64,000 bases of DNA. It comes from Shigella phage ESh30. Made by a program: the position numbers and the translations under genes. The stretch lies in sequence record ON528740. One strand, written 5' to 3'. This document shows, piece after piece, positions 5,114 through 41,678 of the stretch. Positions within the stretch are counted from its first letter, which is position 1; the number at the start of each line of letters is the position of its first letter. The notes beneath the pieces are model-generated. The model did no database searches, was not told the origin of the DNA, and saw only the letters and a list, made by a program, of their open reading frames with translations.

Positions 5114-6931
5114 ATGATTAAGAATGAAATTAAAATTCTGAGCGATATTGAACATATCAAAAAGCGTAGCGGCATGTATATTGGCTCTTCTGCTAATGAA
5201 ATGCATGAGCGCTTTCTGTTTGGTAAATGGGAAAGTGTTCAGTATGTACCTGGTCTTGTTAAGCTTATTGATGAAATTATCGATAACTCAGTCGATGAAG
5301 GTATTCGTACTAAGTTTAAATTCGCGAATAAAATTAATGTTACCATTAAAAATAATCAGGTAACAGTTGAAGATAACGGTCGTGGTATTCCACAAGCGAT
5401 GGTTAAAACACCTACCGGTGAAGAAATTCCTGGTCCTGTTGCTGCCTGGACTATTCCAAAAGCAGGTGGTAACTTTGGTGATGATAAAGAACGTGTCACC
5501 GGTGGTATGAATGGTGTTGGTTCTAGTTTAACTAACATTTTTTCTGTGATGTTTGTCGGTGAAACTGGCGATGGTCAAAATAATATTGTAGTTCGTTGTT
5601 CAAATGGTATGGAAAATAAATCCTGGGAAACTATTCCTGGAAAATGGAAAGGAACTCGTGTTACTTTCATTCCTGATTTTATGTCATTTGAAACTAATGA
5701 GCTGTCCCAGGTTTATCTTGACATTACACTGGATCGTCTCCAGACACTTGCTGTCGTTTATCCTGATATTCAATTTACCTTTAATGGTAAAAAGGTTCAG
5801 GGTAATTTTAAGAAATATGCACGCCAATATGATGAGCATGCTATTGTTCAAGAACAAGAAAATTGTTCTATTGCGGTTGGTCGTTCACCGGATGGTTTTC
5901 GTCAATTAACATACGTCAATAACATTCATACTAAGAATGGTGGCCATCACATTGACTGTGTTATGGATGATATTTGCGAAGACCTTATTCCACAAATCAA
6001 ACGTAAATTCAAAATTGATGTAACTAAAGCACGCGTTAAAGAATGTTTGACTATCGTTATGTTTGTTCGTGATATGAAAAACATGCGATTTGATTCTCAA
6101 ACTAAAGAGCGTTTGACTTCTCCATTTGGCGAAATTCGTAGTCATATTCAGCTTGATGCTAAAAAGATTTCACGCGCTATTCTAAATAATGAAGCAATTC
6201 TAATGCCGATTATTGAAGCTGCTTTGGCTCGTAAATTGGCGGCAGAGAAAGCAGCAGAAACTAAAGCAGCTAAAAAGGCTTCTAAAGCTAAAGTTCATAA
6301 ACATATCAAAGCGAATCTTTGCGGTAAAGATGCTGATACTACTCTTTTCTTGACTGAGGGTGATTCGGCTATCGGATATCTTATTGATGTTCGTGATAAA
6401 GAACTTCATGGTGGTTATCCATTGCGCGGTAAAGTTCTCAACAGTTGGGGTATGTCATATGCTGATATGCTTAAAAACAAAGAACTATTTGATATTTGCG
6501 CAATCACTGGATTAGTTCTTGGTGAAAAAGCTGAAAACTTGAATTATCATAATATTGCTATTATGACTGATGCTGACCATGATGGTCTAGGAAGCATTTA
6601 TCCTTCTCTGCTCGGATTTTTTAGTAATTGGCCAGAATTGTTTGAGCAAGGACGAATTCGCTTTGTCAAAACTCCTGTAATCATCGCTCAGGTCGATAAA
6701 AAACAAGAATGGTTTTATACAGTCGCTGAATATGAGAGTGCTAAAGATGCTCTACCTAAACATAGCATCCGTTATATTAAGGGACTTGGCTCTTTGGAAA
6801 AATCTGAATATCGTGAGATGATTCAAAATCCAGTATATGATGTTGTTAAACTTCCTGAGAACTGGAAAGAGCTTTTTGAAATGCTCATGGGAGATAATGC
6901 TGACCTTCGTAAAGAATGGATGAGCCAGTAG
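5114..6931 (+). CDS. 39: DNA topoisomerase II large subunit (GyrB-like ATPase), uninterrupted 605 aa
   Basis: MIKNEIKILSDIEHIKKRSGMYIGS... GHKL ATPase and TOPRIM motifs; full-length single ORF, unlike T4 where the C-terminal part is the separate gene 60. Confidence 0.95.
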   Translation: MIKNEIKILSDIEHIKKRSGMYIGSSANEMHERFLFGKWESVQYVPGLVKLIDEIIDNSVDEGIRTKFKFANKINVTIKNNQVTVEDNGRGIPQAMVKTPTGEEIPGPVAAWTIPKAGGNFGDDKERVTGGMNGVGSSLTNIFSVMFVGETGDGQNNIVVRCSNGMENKSWETIPGKWKGTRVTFIPDFMSFETNELSQVYLDITLDRLQTLAVVYPDIQFTFNGKKVQGNFKKYARQYDEHAIVQEQENCSIAVGRSPDGFRQLTYVNNIHTKNGGHHIDCVMDDICEDLIPQIKRKFKIDVTKARVKECLTIVMFVRDMKNMRFDSQTKERLTSPFGEIRSHIQLDAKKISRAILNNEAILMPIIEAALARKLAAEKAAETKAAKKASKAKVHKHIKANLCGKDADTTLFLTEGDSAIGYLIDVRDKELHGGYPLRGKVLNSWGMSYADMLKNKELFDICAITGLVLGEKAENLNYHNIAIMTDADHDGLGSIYPSLLGFFSNWPELFEQGRIRFVKTPVIIAQVDKKQEWFYTVAEYESAKDALPKHSIRYIKGLGSLEKSEYREMIQNPVYDVVKLPENWKELFEMLMGDNADLRKEWMSQ

Positions 6932-6960
6932 TTTACTTTACCACAAGGATGTGGTATAAT
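6931..6960 (+). promoter_or_regulatory. T4-type early promoter (GTTTAC ... GTGGTATAAT)
   Basis: gtttactttaccacaaggatgtggtataat immediately downstream of gene 39 stop. Confidence 0.6.
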
Positions 6961-6985
6961 TAATTGGGCAAATGAGGATATTGAA

Positions 6986-34830: not shown

Positions 34831-36011
34831 ATGAAACAATACCAAGATTTAATTAAAGACATTTTTGAAAATGGCTATGAAACCGATGACCGAACAGGCA
34901 CAGGAACAATTGCTTTATTCGGTACTAAATTACGCTGGGATTTAACTAAAGGTTTTCCTGCGGTAACAACTAAGAAGCTCGCCTGGAAAGCTTGCATTGC
35001 TGAGCTACTTTGGTTTTTATCAGGAAGCACAAATGTCAATGATTTACGATTAATTCAGCATGATTCGTTAATCCAAGGCAAAACAGTTTGGGATGAAAAT
35101 TACGAAAATCAGGCAAAAGATTTAGGATACCATAGTGGTGAACTTGGCCCAATTTATGGAAAACAGTGGCGCGATTTTGGCGGTGTAGACCAAATTATAG
35201 AAGTTATTGATCGTATTAAAAAACTACCAAGTGATAGGCGTCAAATTGTTTCTGCGTGGAATCCAGCTGAACTTAAATATATGGCATTACCACCTTGTCA
35301 TATGTTCTATCAGTTTAATGTGCGTAATGGTTATCTTGATTTACAATGGTATCAACGCAGTGTAGATGTTTTCTTGGGTTAATTGAGGCCTAGGTATAAG
35401 GTGACTTATACTTGTAATCTATCTAAACGGGGGACCTCTCTAGTAGACAATCCCGTGCTAAATTGTAGGACTACCCTTTAATAATTTCATCAGGATTAGT
35501 TACTTACCGTGTAAAATCTGATAAATGGAATTGGTTCTACATAAATGCCTAACGACTATCCCTTTGGGGAGTAGGGTCAAGTGACTCGAAACGATAGACA
35601 ACTTGCTTTAACAAGTTGAAGATATAGTCTGATCTGCATGGTGACATGCAGCTGGATATAATTCCGGGGTAAGATTAACGACCTTATCTGAACATAATGC
35701 TTCCATTTAATATTGCATCATATGCTACGTTAGTTCATATTGTAGCTAAGATGTGTAATCTTATTCCGGGAGATTTGATATTTTCCGGTGGTAATACTCA
35801 TATCTATATGAATCACGTAGAACAATGTAAAGAAATTTTGCGTCGTGAACCTAAAGAGCTTTGTGAACTGGTAATAGGCGGATTGCCTTATAAATTCCGC
35901 TATCTTTCTACTAAAGAACAATTGGAATACATTCTTAAACTCAGGCCTAAAGATTTCGTTCTCAAAGATTATCAGTCCCACGGCGTCTTGAAAGGAAAAA
36001 TGGCGGTGTAA
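34831..36011 (+). CDS. td: thymidylate synthase, interrupted by a group I intron: join(34831..35379, 35700..36011), 286 aa
   Basis: Exon 1 MKQYQDLIKDIFENGYETDDRTGTG...QRSVDVFLG and exon 2 LPFNIASYATLVHIVAKMCNLIPGD...KGKMAV join in frame to give a 286-aa thymidylate synthase. Confidence 0.92.
35380..35699 (+). ncRNA. self-splicing group I intron in td (320 nt), lacking an intact homing-endonuclease ORF
   Basis: Begins UAAUUGAGGCC right after exon-terminal U, ends ...CUGAACAUAAUG (terminal G); conserved core segments of the T4 td intron recognisable. Confidence 0.88.
35484..35552 (+). pseudogene. 3'-terminal remnant of homing endonuclease I-TevI (last ~22 codons)
   Basis: Translation IISSGLVTYRVKSDKWNWFYINA* matches the C-terminus of T4 I-TevI; no start codon or GIY-YIG domain upstream. 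Confidence 0.75.
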
Positions 36012-36034: not shown

Positions 36035-36298
36035 ATGATTTTACGATTTAAAGATACTTCTGGTGTAGTTCTTTTTACACTTCCTAACCCAAGTGAGTTA
36101 GAAGTTCCAGGACCAAATCAGCCTATTATCATTTATGGCAAAAAATATTATACTCATAAAATGACTCGTGAGTATTTTGATAATAAAATTTCCACAGTTA
36201 AAACTTCTTCTGACTGTTACTACGATATTACTGTTTTAACGGAAAAACAATATGCCGAATTATCACCGCGCGGGCCGTCTATGTCGGGTAGTGAATAA
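36035..36298 (+). CDS. hypothetical protein (87 aa)
   Basis: ORF track; between td and nrdA. Confidence 0.45.
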
Positions 36299-36578
36299 AT
36301 ACAAATCCGACTTTGATGTGAATATTCACCGTGGTACATTTTGGGGAAATTACGTCGGTAAAGATGCTGGCAGCCGGGAGGCTGCCATTGAATTATTCAA
36401 AAAAGATTTTATACGTCGAATTAAATCCGGAGAAATAACTAAAGCACATTTAGAGCCTTTACGTGGAATGAGGCTAGGATGCACATGTAAACCAAAGCCG
36501 TGTCATGGTGATATAATAGCTCATATAGTTAACCGATTGTTTAAAGACGATTTTCAAGTTGAGGACTTATGCAATTAA
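36252..36578 (+). CDS. hypothetical protein (108 aa) with Cys/His motif [12 protein letters not shown]
   Basis: ORF track; possible metal-binding motif. Confidence 0.45.
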
Positions 36579-38833
36579 TTAATGTTATCAAAAGTAGTGG
36601 TGTTTCTCAGAGCTTTGACCCACAAAAAATTATTAAAGTTTTATCTTGGGCAGCTGAGGGAACATCAGTAGATCCTTATGAATTATATGAAAATATTAAA
36701 TCTTATCTCCGTGATGGAATGACAACTGATGATATTCAGACTATTGTCATTAAGGCCGCTGCGAATTCTATTTCGGTTGAAGAGCCTGATTATCAATATG
36801 TAGCTGCACGTTGTCTAATGTTCGCTCTTCGTAAGCATGTTTATGGGCAGTATGAACCGCGTTCATTTATTGACCATATTTCTTACTGTGTAAATGAAGG
36901 TAAATACGACCCTGAACTGTTGTCAAAATATTCAGCAGAAGAAATTACATTTTTAGAATCAAAAATTAAGCACGAACGGGATATGGAATTTACTTATTCC
37001 GGGGCGATGCAATTAAAAGAAAAATATCTAGTTAAAGATAAAACCACTGGTCAAATTTATGAAACTCCACAGTTTGCATTTATGACTATTGGAATGGCCT
37101 TGCATCAAGATGAACCTGTTGATAGATTAAAACACGTTATTCGTTTTTATGAAGCAGTATCTACTCGACAGATTTCATTGCCAACTCCTATTATGGCTGG
37201 TTGTCGTACTCCGACTCGACAGTTCAGTTCATGCGTTGTTATTGAGGCAGGTGATTCATTGAAGTCTATCAATAAGGCTTCCGCTTCAATTGTTGAATAT
37301 ATCTCTAAACGCGCTGGAATTGGTATTAATGTTGGCATGATTCGTGCCGAAGGTTCTAAGATTGGCATGGGTGAAGTACGTCATACTGGTGTTATTCCTT
37401 TTTGGAAACATTTTCAGACTGCAGTTAAATCATGTTCACAGGGTGGAATTCGTGGCGGCGCTGCTACTGCTTATTATCCTATTTGGCATTTGGAAGTTGA
37501 AAATCTTCTCGTTTTGAAAAATAACAAAGGCGTAGAAGAAAACCGCATTCGTCATATGGATTATGGCGTTCAACTGAATGATTTGATGATGGAACGTTTT
37601 GGAAAGAACGATTACATTACTTTGTTCAGTCCCCATGAAATGGGTGGAGAGCTTTATTATTCTTATTTTAAAGACCAAGACCGTTTCCGTGAATTATACG
37701 AAGCAGCAGAAAAAGACCCTAATATTCGTAAAAAGCGTATTAAAGCCCGTGAACTATTTGAATTGCTCATGACTGAACGCTCAGGAACAGCAAGAATTTA
37801 TGTACAGTTCATTGATAATACGAATAACTATACTCCGTTTATTCGTGAAAAGGCACCTATTCGTCAGAGTAACTTGTGCTGTGAAATTGCTATTCCAACA
37901 AATGATGTGAATAGTCCTGATGCTGAAATTGGATTGTGCACGTTATCTGCATTTGTGTTGGATAACTTCGATTGGCAAGACCAAGATAAAATTAATGAAT
38001 TGGCAGAAGTCCAAGTTCGTGCTCTTGATAATCTTTTGGATTACCAAGGATATCCAGTTCCTGAAGCAGAAAAAGCTAAAAAGCGTCGTAACCTTGGTGT
38101 AGGTGTTACTAACTATGCAGCTTGGCTGGCAAGTAACTTTGCTTCTTATGAAGATGCTAACGATTTAACACATGAACTATTTGAGAGATTACAGTATGGA
38201 CTCATTAAAGCATCCATTAAGCTCGCCAAAGAAAAAGGACCTTGCGAATATTATTCAGACACTCGTTGGTCTCGAGGCGAATTACCTATCGACTGGTACA
38301 ATAAAAAGATTGACCAAATCGCAGCTCCAAAATACGTTTGTGACTGGTCGTCGCTGCGGGAAGACCTTAAGCTCTTTGGCATCCGTAATAGCACATTATC
38401 GGCACTTATGCCATGTGAGTCATCTTCCCAAGTTTCTAACAGTACAAACGGTATCGAGCCTCCACGTGGACCAGTCTCTGTTAAAGAATCAAAAGAGGGC
38501 TCCTTTAATCAAGTCGTGCCCAATATTGAGCATAACATAGACCTATATGATTATACGTGGAAATTAGCTAAGAAAGGTAATAAACCTTATCTTACGCAGG
38601 TAGCTATTATGCTGAAATGGGTATGTCAATCAGCTTCAGCGAATACATACTATGACCCGCAGATTTTTCCAAAAGGAAAGGTTCCAATGTCAATAATGAT
38701 TGATGACATGCTATACGGATGGTATTATGGCATTAAAAATTTCTATTATCATAATACCCGTGATGGTTCTGGTACTGATGATTATGAAATAGAAACTCCA
38801 AAAGCTGAAGATTGTTCATCCTGTAAATTATGA
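36569..38833 (+). CDS. nrdA: aerobic ribonucleoside-diphosphate reductase large subunit (754 aa)
   Basis: 754 aa, same length as T4 NrdA; N-terminal ATP-cone and class I RNR catalytic core. Confidence 0.95.
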   Translation: MQLINVIKSSGVSQSFDPQKIIKVLSWAAEGTSVDPYELYENIKSYLRDGMTTDDIQTIVIKAAANSISVEEPDYQYVAARCLMFALRKHVYGQYEPRSFIDHISYCVNEGKYDPELLSKYSAEEITFLESKIKHERDMEFTYSGAMQLKEKYLVKDKTTGQIYETPQFAFMTIGMALHQDEPVDRLKHVIRFYEAVSTRQISLPTPIMAGCRTPTRQFSSCVVIEAGDSLKSINKASASIVEYISKRAGIGINVGMIRAEGSKIGMGEVRHTGVIPFWKHFQTAVKSCSQGGIRGGAATAYYPIWHLEVENLLVLKNNKGVEENRIRHMDYGVQLNDLMMERFGKNDYITLFSPHEMGGELYYSYFKDQDRFRELYEAAEKDPNIRKKRIKARELFELLMTERSGTARIYVQFIDNTNNYTPFIREKAPIRQSNLCCEIAIPTNDVNSPDAEIGLCTLSAFVLDNFDWQDQDKINELAEVQVRALDNLLDYQGYPVPEAEKAKKRRNLGVGVTNYAAWLASNFASYEDANDLTHELFERLQYGLIKASIKLAKEKGPCEYYSDTRWSRGELPIDWYNKKIDQIAAPKYVCDWSSLREDLKLFGIRNSTLSALMPCESSSQVSNSTNGIEPPRGPVSVKESKEGSFNQVVPNIEHNIDLYDYTWKLAKKGNKPYLTQVAIMLKWVCQSASANTYYDPQIFPKGKVPMSIMIDDMLYGWYYGIKNFYYHNTRDGSGTDDYEIETPKAEDCSSCKL

Positions 38834-38884
38834 TATAATTTGACTCACGGACGAGTCACCAACTATTAACTAAGTGGAAAATTT

Positions 38885-40063
38885 ATGAGCACAGTTTTTA
38901 ATACAAACCCAGTTGATGTTTTAAAAGAACCTATGTTTTTTGGTTCAGGTCTTGGTATTGCGCGTTATGATATTCAACGGCATCGAGTATTTGAAGAACT
39001 TACAGAGAAGTCCTTATCATTTTTCTGGCGCCCGGAAGAAGTAAACTTAATGATGGATGCTGCACAGTTTAATAAGCTTCCTCAGTATCAGCAAAATATT
39101 TTTACTAACAACTTGAAGTATCAATCACTTTTGGATAGCATTCAGGGTCGTGCGCCGTCTGCTGTACTTATGTCATTAATTTCAAACCCAAGCCTTGATA
39201 CGTGGGTTGCTACATGGACTTTTAGTGAAACTATTCACAGTCGTTCATATACACATATCATGCGAAATCTTTATACTGATCCATCGAAGGTATTTGATGA
39301 GATTGTATTAGATGAAGCTATTATGAAACGTGCTGAATCCATTGGACGTTATTATGATGATGTTCTGATTAAAACTCGTGAATGGGAAAATGCTAAAGAA
39401 TTTGTAGAACTATCTAAAGAATCTCCTGATGCCGACTTTCGTTTAAACCGAGCTATTAAACAAGAAGCCGAAGCTAAACGTGCTTTAATGAAATCTCTTT
39501 ACCTCTGTTTGCACGTTATTAATGCCTTAGAAGCTATTCGTTTTTATGTATCTTTCGCATGCACTTTTAACTTCCATAAGAACATGGAAATCATGGAAGG
39601 TAATGCCAAGATTATGAAGTTCATTGCGCGTGATGAGCAGCTTCATCTTAAAGGCACCCAATATATTATTCGTCAACTTCAACTTGGCACTGATGGCGAT
39701 GAATGGGTTAAAATTGCTCAAGAGTGTGAACAAGAAGCAGTTGATATTTTCATGGAAGTTAACCGCCAAGAAAAAGATTGGGCAGTTCATTTATTTAAAG
39801 ATGGAGATGTTCCTGGATTAAATACAAATAGCATGTGGAGCTTTATTGATTACTTAACTGTATCTCGTATGAAGCAGTGTGGTCTTCCATGCCCAATTAC
39901 CGATGCTCCGGTTAAACATCCATATCCTTGGATTCGTGAATATCTTAATTCTGATAATGTTCAATCTGCGCCACAAGAAGTAGAATTGTCATCTTACCTT
40001 GTTGCACAGATTGATAATGATGTTGATGATAAAGTTATGATGAGTTTTAAAAAATACTTTTAA
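38885..40063 (+). CDS. nrdB: ribonucleoside-diphosphate reductase small subunit (392 aa), uninterrupted
   Basis: Di-iron/tyrosyl-radical R2 protein; single continuous ORF with no intron. Confidence 0.92.
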   Translation: MSTVFNTNPVDVLKEPMFFGSGLGIARYDIQRHRVFEELTEKSLSFFWRPEEVNLMMDAAQFNKLPQYQQNIFTNNLKYQSLLDSIQGRAPSAVLMSLISNPSLDTWVATWTFSETIHSRSYTHIMRNLYTDPSKVFDEIVLDEAIMKRAESIGRYYDDVLIKTREWENAKEFVELSKESPDADFRLNRAIKQEAEAKRALMKSLYLCLHVINALEAIRFYVSFACTFNFHKNMEIMEGNAKIMKFIARDEQLHLKGTQYIIRQLQLGTDGDEWVKIAQECEQEAVDIFMEVNRQEKDWAVHLFKDGDVPGLNTNSMWSFIDYLTVSRMKQCGLPCPITDAPVKHPYPWIREYLNSDNVQSAPQEVELSSYLVAQIDNDVDDKVMMSFKKYF

Positions 40064-40067
40064 GGAG

Positions 40068-40090
40068 TGGGCCGCAAGGCCCATTTTATT
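40068..40090 (+). terminator. hairpin tgggcc-gcaa-ggccca + T-rich tract after nrdB
   Basis: Inverted repeat followed by TTTTATT, abutting denA start. Confidence 0.5.

Positions 40091-41678
<1,588 letters not shown>

Follow-up and report, generated by a model that had tools for sequence, protein, structure and literature searches.

NrdA.1 of Shigella phage ESh30, a stand-alone DUF4326 protein with a conserved cysteine-histidine signature and a predicted role in ribose-phosphate chemistry

Introduction

Bacteriophages T4 and T6 carry a small gene, nrdA.1, ahead of the genes nrdA and nrdB for class Ia ribonucleotide reductase (RNR). Like many other T4 genes, it was sequenced decades ago and has never been given a function; its product is annotated as a hypothetical protein (NP_049846), and the name nrdA.1 was found in the literature in two genome-annotation tables only. 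The present study concerns the nrdA.1 gene of Shigella phage ESh30, which is located at 36252..36578 on the plus strand of a 64,000-nucleotide stretch of sequence record ON528740 (the window; coordinates are those of the window unless another locus is named). Its product belongs to the Pfam family DUF4326, for which computational predictions have been published. According to one proposal, DUF4326 is a rhodanese-phosphatase clade whose members process the terminal phosphates carried by the ribose of ADP-ribose (ADPr) products (PMC9503650), and Iyer et al. (2021) described it as an "enigmatic" predicted enzymatic domain bridging NAD+ signalling and DNA modification (PMC7824862). Furthermore, a 2025 preprint reports amoeba-virus proteins in which DUF4326 is joined to homologues of an anti-Avs protein.

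An earlier sequence-only reading of the window had called the function of this gene unknown. This holds for experiment, whereas published work (PMC9503650, PMC7824862) already predicts an activity of the rhodanese-phosphatase type, directed at ribose-linked phosphates. On the evidence presented here, we consider the most likely mechanism of NrdA.1 to be that of a Cys-dependent phosphoesterase or phosphotransferase with a ribose-linked phosphate as its target, and we give it about an even chance.

Results and Discussion

Identity and family membership of NrdA.1

The window belongs to a Tequatrovirus. The region shared 99.9% identity with Escherichia phage ACG-C40 and was matched by hundreds of Tequatrovirus genomes. 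The NrdA.1 protein was 100% identical to that of phage T6 (ABI48941), which is annotated with the same reading of 108 amino acids, and 96% identical to that of T4, from which it differs by four substitutions confined to the non-conserved N-terminal residues 2–7. Both relatives share with it the length of 108 amino acids, the position, the gene order td-nrdA.2-nrdA.1-nrdA-nrdB, and the overlaps with nrdA.2 and nrdA. The gene, which the sequence-only reading had listed as an anonymous small open reading frame (ORF), is instead the T4/T6 gene nrdA.1, and its product matched DUF4326 (PF14216) with 78.7 bits and E 5.5e-22, compared with a curated gathering threshold of 25 bits. The match covered residues 11–90 and profile positions 1–81 of 82, and this stand-alone domain was the sole domain of the protein. 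The residues that mark DUF4326 (in the N-terminal half, N, D, R, and [WF]GN; in the C-terminal half, L-G-C-x-C-x-P-x2-C-H-G-D) were all found in the window protein, which also matched PHROG 464 ("unknown function") with E 4e-49. These sequence comparisons establish NrdA.1 with certainty as a member of DUF4326 and of the nrdA.1 orthologous group. Both the gene and the family were already known, and the function discussed here is a prediction only.

The T4 clade differs from the wider family in having Y34 at a position where 90% of members have Pro (WGNY versus WGNP) and in having an extra Cys, C11, which was kept within the T4-like clade only. NrdA.1 had no match in NCBIfam or PADLOC, and PDB sequences, searched with the protein alone and also with a profile of 61 sequences, yielded chance matches only (E of at least 0.66). 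When 1.84 billion cluster representatives were searched with a profile, 10,718 DUF4326 representatives (clustered at 50% identity) were obtained at E ≤ 1e-3. Members of the family come from bacteria as well as from phages, archaeal viruses, and giant viruses.

Some DUF4326-only ORFs bear the name "ribonucleotide reductase NrdA-like" (PHROG 24867, E 1.4e-6, and records H40, H58, and H62). We rejected the label of an NrdA-like reductase for NrdA.1: DUF4326 was the only Pfam match, and no similarity to the RNR domains (ATP-cone, all-alpha, or barrel) was found. Such labels apparently arose by propagation of the name "NrdA.1".

Reading frame and expression of nrdA.1

The ATG at 36252 is the sole start codon that keeps the conserved N-terminal block, and no further ATG, GTG, or TTG occurs before the codon of C11. 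A shorter RefSeq start, the GTG at 36318, gives a product of 86 amino acids (6719–6979 in ACG-C40, locus L001) and was rejected. Because the GTG start would remove the conserved N15 and D22 and no alternative start codon precedes the conserved block, the reading of 108 amino acids, as in T4 and T6, is the correct one as judged by the family alignment, which it fits. Truncated gene calls of NrdA.1 with 87 amino acids are also present in the protein database (P0028 and P0046). A chance or spurious ORF was likewise rejected, on the basis of the conservation, the 78.7-bit domain match, and tblastn matches in 1,962 phage records.

The start of nrdA.1 overlaps the end of nrdA.2 by 47 nucleotides out of frame (36252..36298, plus strand), and this overlap is annotated alike in T4 and T6. 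The last 47 nucleotides of nrdA.2 thus double as codons for the N-terminus of NrdA.1 in a second frame. The end of nrdA.1 overlaps the ribosome-binding site and start codon of nrdA (36561..36578, plus strand): the nrdA Shine-Dalgarno sequence GAGGA (36561–36565) is located inside nrdA.1, and the nrdA.1 stop codon (36576–36578) lies 10 nucleotides within nrdA, whose ATG is at 36569. The placement immediately before the RNR genes, pointed out in the sequence-only reading, was confirmed by this 10-nucleotide overlap and by the position of nrdB from 38885. The overlap with the nrdA ribosome-binding site and ATG implies translational coupling, and nrdA.1 appears to be coupled to nrdA in this way. 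Scans for promoters, terminators, and MotA boxes gave nothing specific just upstream of nrdA.1. A private nrdA.1 promoter was therefore rejected, and the gene appears to be read from a td-nrdA.2-nrdA.1-nrdA-nrdB message.

Conservation of the Cys/His signature

The codons at 36480..36512 on the plus strand (TGC ACA TGT AAA CCA AAG CCG TGT CAT GGT GAT, the last at 36510–36512) encode C77-T-C79-K-P81-K-P-C84-H85-G86-D87, a putative active-site or metal-binding loop. The sequence-only reading had given the 12-residue string of this motif exactly and its spacing wrongly, as CxC-x5-CH-x-D; with KPKP between C79 and C84, the spacing is CxC-x4-CH-x-D. A second conserved block, identified in the homologue alignments and in the alignment with DUF488 described below, lies in the N-terminal half and comprises C11-R-V-V-N15, D22-V-N-I-H-R27-G, and W31-G32-N33 (36282..36350, plus strand).

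We examined the conservation of these residues at three depths. Among 27 homologues (down to 46% identity), C77, C79, P81, C84, H85, G86, and D87 were all invariant. Among 61 homologues (down to 42% identity), C77, C79, P81, C84, and H85 were invariant, and G86 and D87 were at least 90% conserved. Among 152 diverse domain copies, taken from the 150 best 50%-identity cluster representatives, the values were 100% for C77, 99% for C79, 99% for P81, 100% for C84, 99% for H85, 94% for G86, and 93% for D87. In the N-terminal half of the same copies, they were 90% for N15, 92% for D22, 96% for R27, 93% for G32, and 99% for N33. The motif was thus kept in 93–100% of diverse copies and is therefore the signature of the DUF4326 family.

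The sequence-only reading had taken the motif for a metal-binding or catalytic site. Its condition for refutation, a lack of conservation of the motif residues among homologues, was contradicted by these alignments. The conservation supports a functional site and is compatible with either kind. A possible, though less probable, alternative to Cys-dependent chemistry is that C77, C79, C84, and H85 form a Cys3His site for zinc or another metal, structural or catalytic, with no Cys nucleophile; substrate binding and chemistry would then be carried out by N15, D22, R27, N33, and D87. All four candidate ligands are 99–100% conserved, whereas Cys-phosphatases and rhodaneses need one Cys, and the absence of Arg from the loop also agrees with a metal site. 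On the other hand, adjacent residues such as C84 and H85 rarely coordinate the same metal, no Pfam zinc-finger match was obtained, and the published analysis derives the clade from a rhodanese-phosphatase (PMC9503650).

Predicted structure and proposed mechanism

The structure of NrdA.1 was predicted with AlphaFold2 from an alignment of 61 sequences. The model (predicted local distance difference score, pLDDT, 88.2; predicted template-modelling score, pTM, 0.80) contained strands at residues 12–15 and 74–77 and helices at residues 42–59, 64–70, 85–96, and 103–106. In this predicted secondary structure, C77 closes a strand, residues 78–84 form a loop, and H85 opens a helix. As modeled, this strand-loop-helix layout is that of the active sites of Cys-phosphatases and rhodaneses, with a Cys at the canonical position. 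The domain is tiny, with about three short strands, and zinc often stabilizes domains of such size, which is a further point in favor of the metal site.

Foldseek comparison of the model with the PDB gave no match below E = 3. The best structural match in the PDB, a tentative one, was the C-terminal domain of RapZ (RapZ-C; 5O5S/5O5Q), over 74–78 residues at 2.9–3.0 Å. Among viral models (BFVD), Foldseek returned DUF4326 proteins of phages, haloarchaeal viruses, pandoraviruses, pithoviruses, and marseilleviruses; every named match ranked above the first outsider was a DUF4326 protein or fusion protein, and that outsider was a DUF488 protein (E 1.5). RapZ-C binds glucosamine 6-phosphate, and DUF4326 might similarly be a non-catalytic module that senses or binds a small molecule, or else an N-glycosidase-type enzyme related to NADAR/YbiA. 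We consider either of these improbable.

In the Cys-dependent mechanism that we prefer, DUF4326 would be a small enzyme of a rhodanese/Cys-phosphatase-like RapZ-C/DUF488/DUF4326 clade, in which a Cys thiolate would attack a phosphate that the loop and the N-terminus of the helix keep in place. The nucleophile may be C77, at the end of the strand, or C79, five residues ahead of H85 in the manner of a CX5R loop; H85 and D87, together with N15, D22, R27, and N33 of the N-terminal half, would complete the pocket. The substrate would be a phosphate on a ribose-containing molecule, which may be a nucleotide, a breakdown product of ADPr or NAD, or an RNA or DNA end. In T4-like phages, NrdA.1 would be made together with the products of td, nrdA, and nrdB and coupled to nrdA translation, as part of an early block for nucleotide metabolism and RNA repair (frd-td-nrdA.1-nrdA-nrdB-denA-rnlA).

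Several points weigh against this mechanism. Cys-based protein tyrosine phosphatases (PTP), dual-specificity phosphatases (DSP), and rhodaneses, which follow the CX5R pattern, have an Arg in the loop and one invariant Cys, whereas NrdA.1 has three invariant Cys, no Arg, an invariant Pro in the loop, and a much smaller domain. The signature C-x5-R-[ST] is absent from NrdA.1, in which H85 follows C79 after five residues in a loop lacking the canonical Arg, and no PTP or DSP match was found in Pfam or in the PDB sequence searches. Three invariant Cys and a His within nine residues would be expected of a metal site more than of a phosphate-binding loop, which usually has one invariant Cys. RapZ-C is, moreover, a ligand-binding and not a catalytic domain. 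The substrate is deduced entirely from the genomic context, which differs among lineages, and biochemical or genetic data on any DUF4326 protein were not found in the searchable literature.

Remote homology to DUF488

Burroughs and Aravind are said to have grouped RapZ-C, DUF488, and DUF4326 in one clade in 2023 and reportedly predicted sugar or nucleotide phosphate transfer and DNA-end processing for it. We compared profiles of DUF4326 and DUF488 (PF04343; YeaO and the "active N3a" subclade) with hhalign. The alignment of 355 DUF4326 sequences with 44 DUF488 proteins encoded in the bacterial operons described below had E 1.6e-3. After the addition of 16 YeaO-type sequences to the latter, the mixed N3a and YeaO profile gave a probability of 62%, E 7.5e-5, and a score of 31.8; the control scores were 12.1 for the reversed template and 8.3–16.0 for 20 column-shuffled templates. 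No signal was obtained against Escherichia coli YeaO alone (0.2%) or against a shallow YeaO-only DUF488 profile (0.4%), and a protein search with YeaO returned close orthologues only, without the Cys. Because the YeaO-only profile failed (0.4%), the support for remote homology of DUF4326 to DUF488 over the C-terminal half, which holds the motif, is moderate, not strong. At that strength, the profile alignment independently supports the grouping of DUF4326 with DUF488 and RapZ-C.

In the alignment, C77 lies opposite a DUF488 Cys, C79 opposite Glu, P81 opposite Pro, C84-H85 opposite C-H, and G86-D87 opposite R-R, so that the DUF488 motif C-x-E-x-x-P-x-x-C-H-R-R runs along the NrdA.1 signature, and D22 to R27 pairs with the "DvR" block of DUF488. 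The two families thus share a Cys at the strand, a Pro in the loop, a Cys-His pair at the start of the helix, and an upstream D-x-R; they differ in the Glu at the position of C79 and in the R-R at that of G86-D87, and their N-terminal halves could not be aligned with confidence. The DUF488 counterparts of the candidate ligands (Cys, Glu, and Cys-His) are all able to bind metal, which again agrees with the metal site.

Gene neighborhoods in phages

In T4-like genera, the gene order is frd-td-(nrdA.2)-nrdA.1-nrdA-nrdB-denA-rnlA. Slopekvirus-like phages have frd-td-nrdA-nrdB-DUF4326-denA-rnlA, and their DUF4326 gene overlaps the end of nrdB. In Aeromonas T4-like phages, the order is td-HAD (RNA-repair type)-DUF4326-GIY-YIG-Rnl1, and nrdAB is absent from the block; directly upstream of DUF4326, these phages encode a HAD phosphatase (PF18143, "Swiss Army Knife RNA repair" type; L041, 5541–6038; also L044, L046, and L047). 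In the Asteriusvirus jumbo phages, the DUF4326 gene is placed between the anaerobic RNR genes nrdD and nrdG, and it shares 29 nucleotides with the latter. This order was read in Salmonella phage SD-1_S14 (L088, 1687–4122) and in a second locus (L071, 4106–6757), and about 50 phage records contain a copy at least 60% identical to the Asteriusvirus DUF4326. A metagenomic contig (L050) encodes DUF4326 directly before an RNR large subunit of 1,223 amino acids that is 29% identical to T4 NrdA.

Other neighbors were NAMPT with a CCA-adding/HD enzyme (L072 and L078), NAMPT with an Rnl1-like ligase (L063, L065, L068, and L069), NAMPT alone (L070, L079, and L082), PhoH-ClpP (L058–L062), and a DNA ligase (L061). 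A fragment of RNA polymerase was adjacent to DUF4326 in L057 and fused to it in L080. In small phages, the gene was found amid unannotated small early genes, an uninformative context. The common theme of these neighborhoods is nucleotide, NAD, and RNA-end metabolism. The link to RNR genes is real: in Straboviridae the gene is found on either side of nrdAB, and in Asteriusvirus it separates nrdD from nrdG. The link is recurrent, not universal.

This recurrence bears on another reading, to which we assign a low probability: NrdA.1 may be a dedicated RNR accessory factor, joined by overlapping frames to class Ia nrdAB and class III nrdD-nrdG operons. It would be either a Cys-relay redox protein, comparable to the triple-cysteine relay of pI258-type ArsC, or an enzyme of nucleotide phosphates that adjusts the substrates or effectors of RNR, and its physical partner would be NrdAB or, in jumbo phages, NrdDG. 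The gene overlaps nrdA in T4-like phages, the Slopekvirus-like copy has shifted to the far side of nrdAB, where it overlaps the nrdB end, the Asteriusvirus copy overlaps nrdG of a different RNR class, the L050 copy stands before a divergent RNR large subunit, and the protein has three invariant cysteines. However, most loci outside the T4-like phages have no RNR gene within 6 kb, and Aeromonas T4-like phages retain td-HAD-DUF4326-denA-rnlA without nrdAB. The dominant cellular context, described in the next section, is unrelated to RNR. Neither the CxxC motif nor the thioredoxin-fold match of a thioredoxin/glutaredoxin-type protein was found. Furthermore, large phages cluster their nucleotide-metabolism genes in any case, and two or three adjacencies among about 20 lineages are only suggestive. 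If this reading were true, the three Cys might act as a redox relay, or the protein might remove or transfer phosphate on RNR substrates or effectors, and the role linked to NAD and ADPr in the literature would be that of only one branch of the family.

Domain fusions and the bacterial operon

Among 42 multidomain representatives, DUF4326 was fused to mSLOG in seven, to YAcAr-SLOG in six, and to NADAR in four; fusions to Macro, TIR, DNA polymerase A, RNase H, and a phage-type RNA polymerase fragment were found once each. A scan of 185,579 species genomes gave 393 confirmed DUF4326 sites, and the bacterial contexts were counted in the 75 loci with a callable DUF4326 gene. The products had at least 180 amino acids in 57 of the 75 loci (180–255 amino acids in 55, and 473 and 486 amino acids in the other two), and DUF4326 was C-terminal in 54 of these 57. 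Two long bacterial products that were scanned for domains both consisted of mSLOG and DUF4326.

A DUF488 gene neighbored the DUF4326 gene in 44 of the 75 loci and was directly upstream in 41; the operonic DUF488 proteins carry C-x-E-x5-C-H-R. A gene for a dual-OB protein, DuOB, was nearby in 46 of the 75 loci (35 + 11), preceding the DUF488 gene. The three-gene unit DuOB – DUF488 – mSLOG-DUF4326 was seen in L153 (4240–5297), L109 (3515–5315), and about 44 more loci among L091–L170, and is common among Proteobacteria, including Methylococcales and Pseudomonas. DUF488 and DUF4326, as paralogous members of the clade, are encoded side by side in this unit. In L152, a HEPN protein of 236 amino acids occupies the place of DUF488, directly upstream. 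The bacterial operon is presumably the source of the recent Pfam entries DuOB, mSLOG, and DUF488-N3a, and the fusions and the operon match the computational predictions published by the Aravind group in 2021–2023.

The bacterial mSLOG-DUF4326 proteins contain the same domain as NrdA.1, with an identical signature (LGCHCKPLxCHGDVI) and 40–50% identity. They differ in having an N-terminal minimal SLOG domain and DUF488 and dual-OB neighbors, whereas the T4 protein is a solo domain. None of the partners DuOB, DUF488, and mSLOG was found among the neighbors within the frd-rnlA block, to which that comparison in the window was confined.

Neighboring features of the window

Upstream of nrdA.1 and in the same transcription unit, nrdA.2 (36035..36298, plus strand) encodes a DUF5496 protein of 87 amino acids (PF17600, E 1.9e-57). 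Its distribution is much narrower than that of nrdA.1: by tblastn, it was found in the closest relatives only (L001–L007), plus L029, in which a weak match (36%) lies downstream of the DUF4326 gene. The class Ia RNR genes on the plus strand, identified from the ORF list and the ACG-C40 annotation, are nrdA (36569–38833; 754 amino acids) and nrdB (38885–40063; 392 amino acids), the latter a single uninterrupted ORF. No mobE or nrdB.1 is present between them (38833–38885). The nrd region of T4 contains mobE, nrdB.1, and an intron with I-TevIII, and that of T6 contains mobE; the window carries fewer of these mobile-element insertions.

The td gene is split into exon ORFs at 34831–35382 and 35697–36011 by a group I intron of about 280 nucleotides (35370–35651, plus strand; Rfam RF00028, 70.3 bits). 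This intron has no homing-endonuclease ORF, whereas T4 and the otherwise 99.9%-identical ACG-C40 have I-TevI inside the td intron. Downstream of nrdB, denA (endonuclease II; 40067–40501, plus strand; GIY-YIG match) was called as an ORF of 144 amino acids with a GTG start. The protein is annotated with 136 amino acids in ACG-C40 and 144 in T4, and the true start is likely the internal ATG at codon 9 (MKEIATEY...).

Significance

For this window, the result is an ordinary one: the gene is known, its family assignment is known, and the motif that had drawn attention is the family signature. The wider interest lies with DUF4326 itself, which has been linked computationally to NAD+/ADPr signalling, to RNA- and DNA-end processing, and to conflict between viruses and their hosts. 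T4 NrdA.1 represents the simplest form of the family, a single domain in a genetically tractable phage, and would offer a handy entry to the chemistry of the family, including that of the bacterial DuOB-DUF488-mSLOG-DUF4326 systems.

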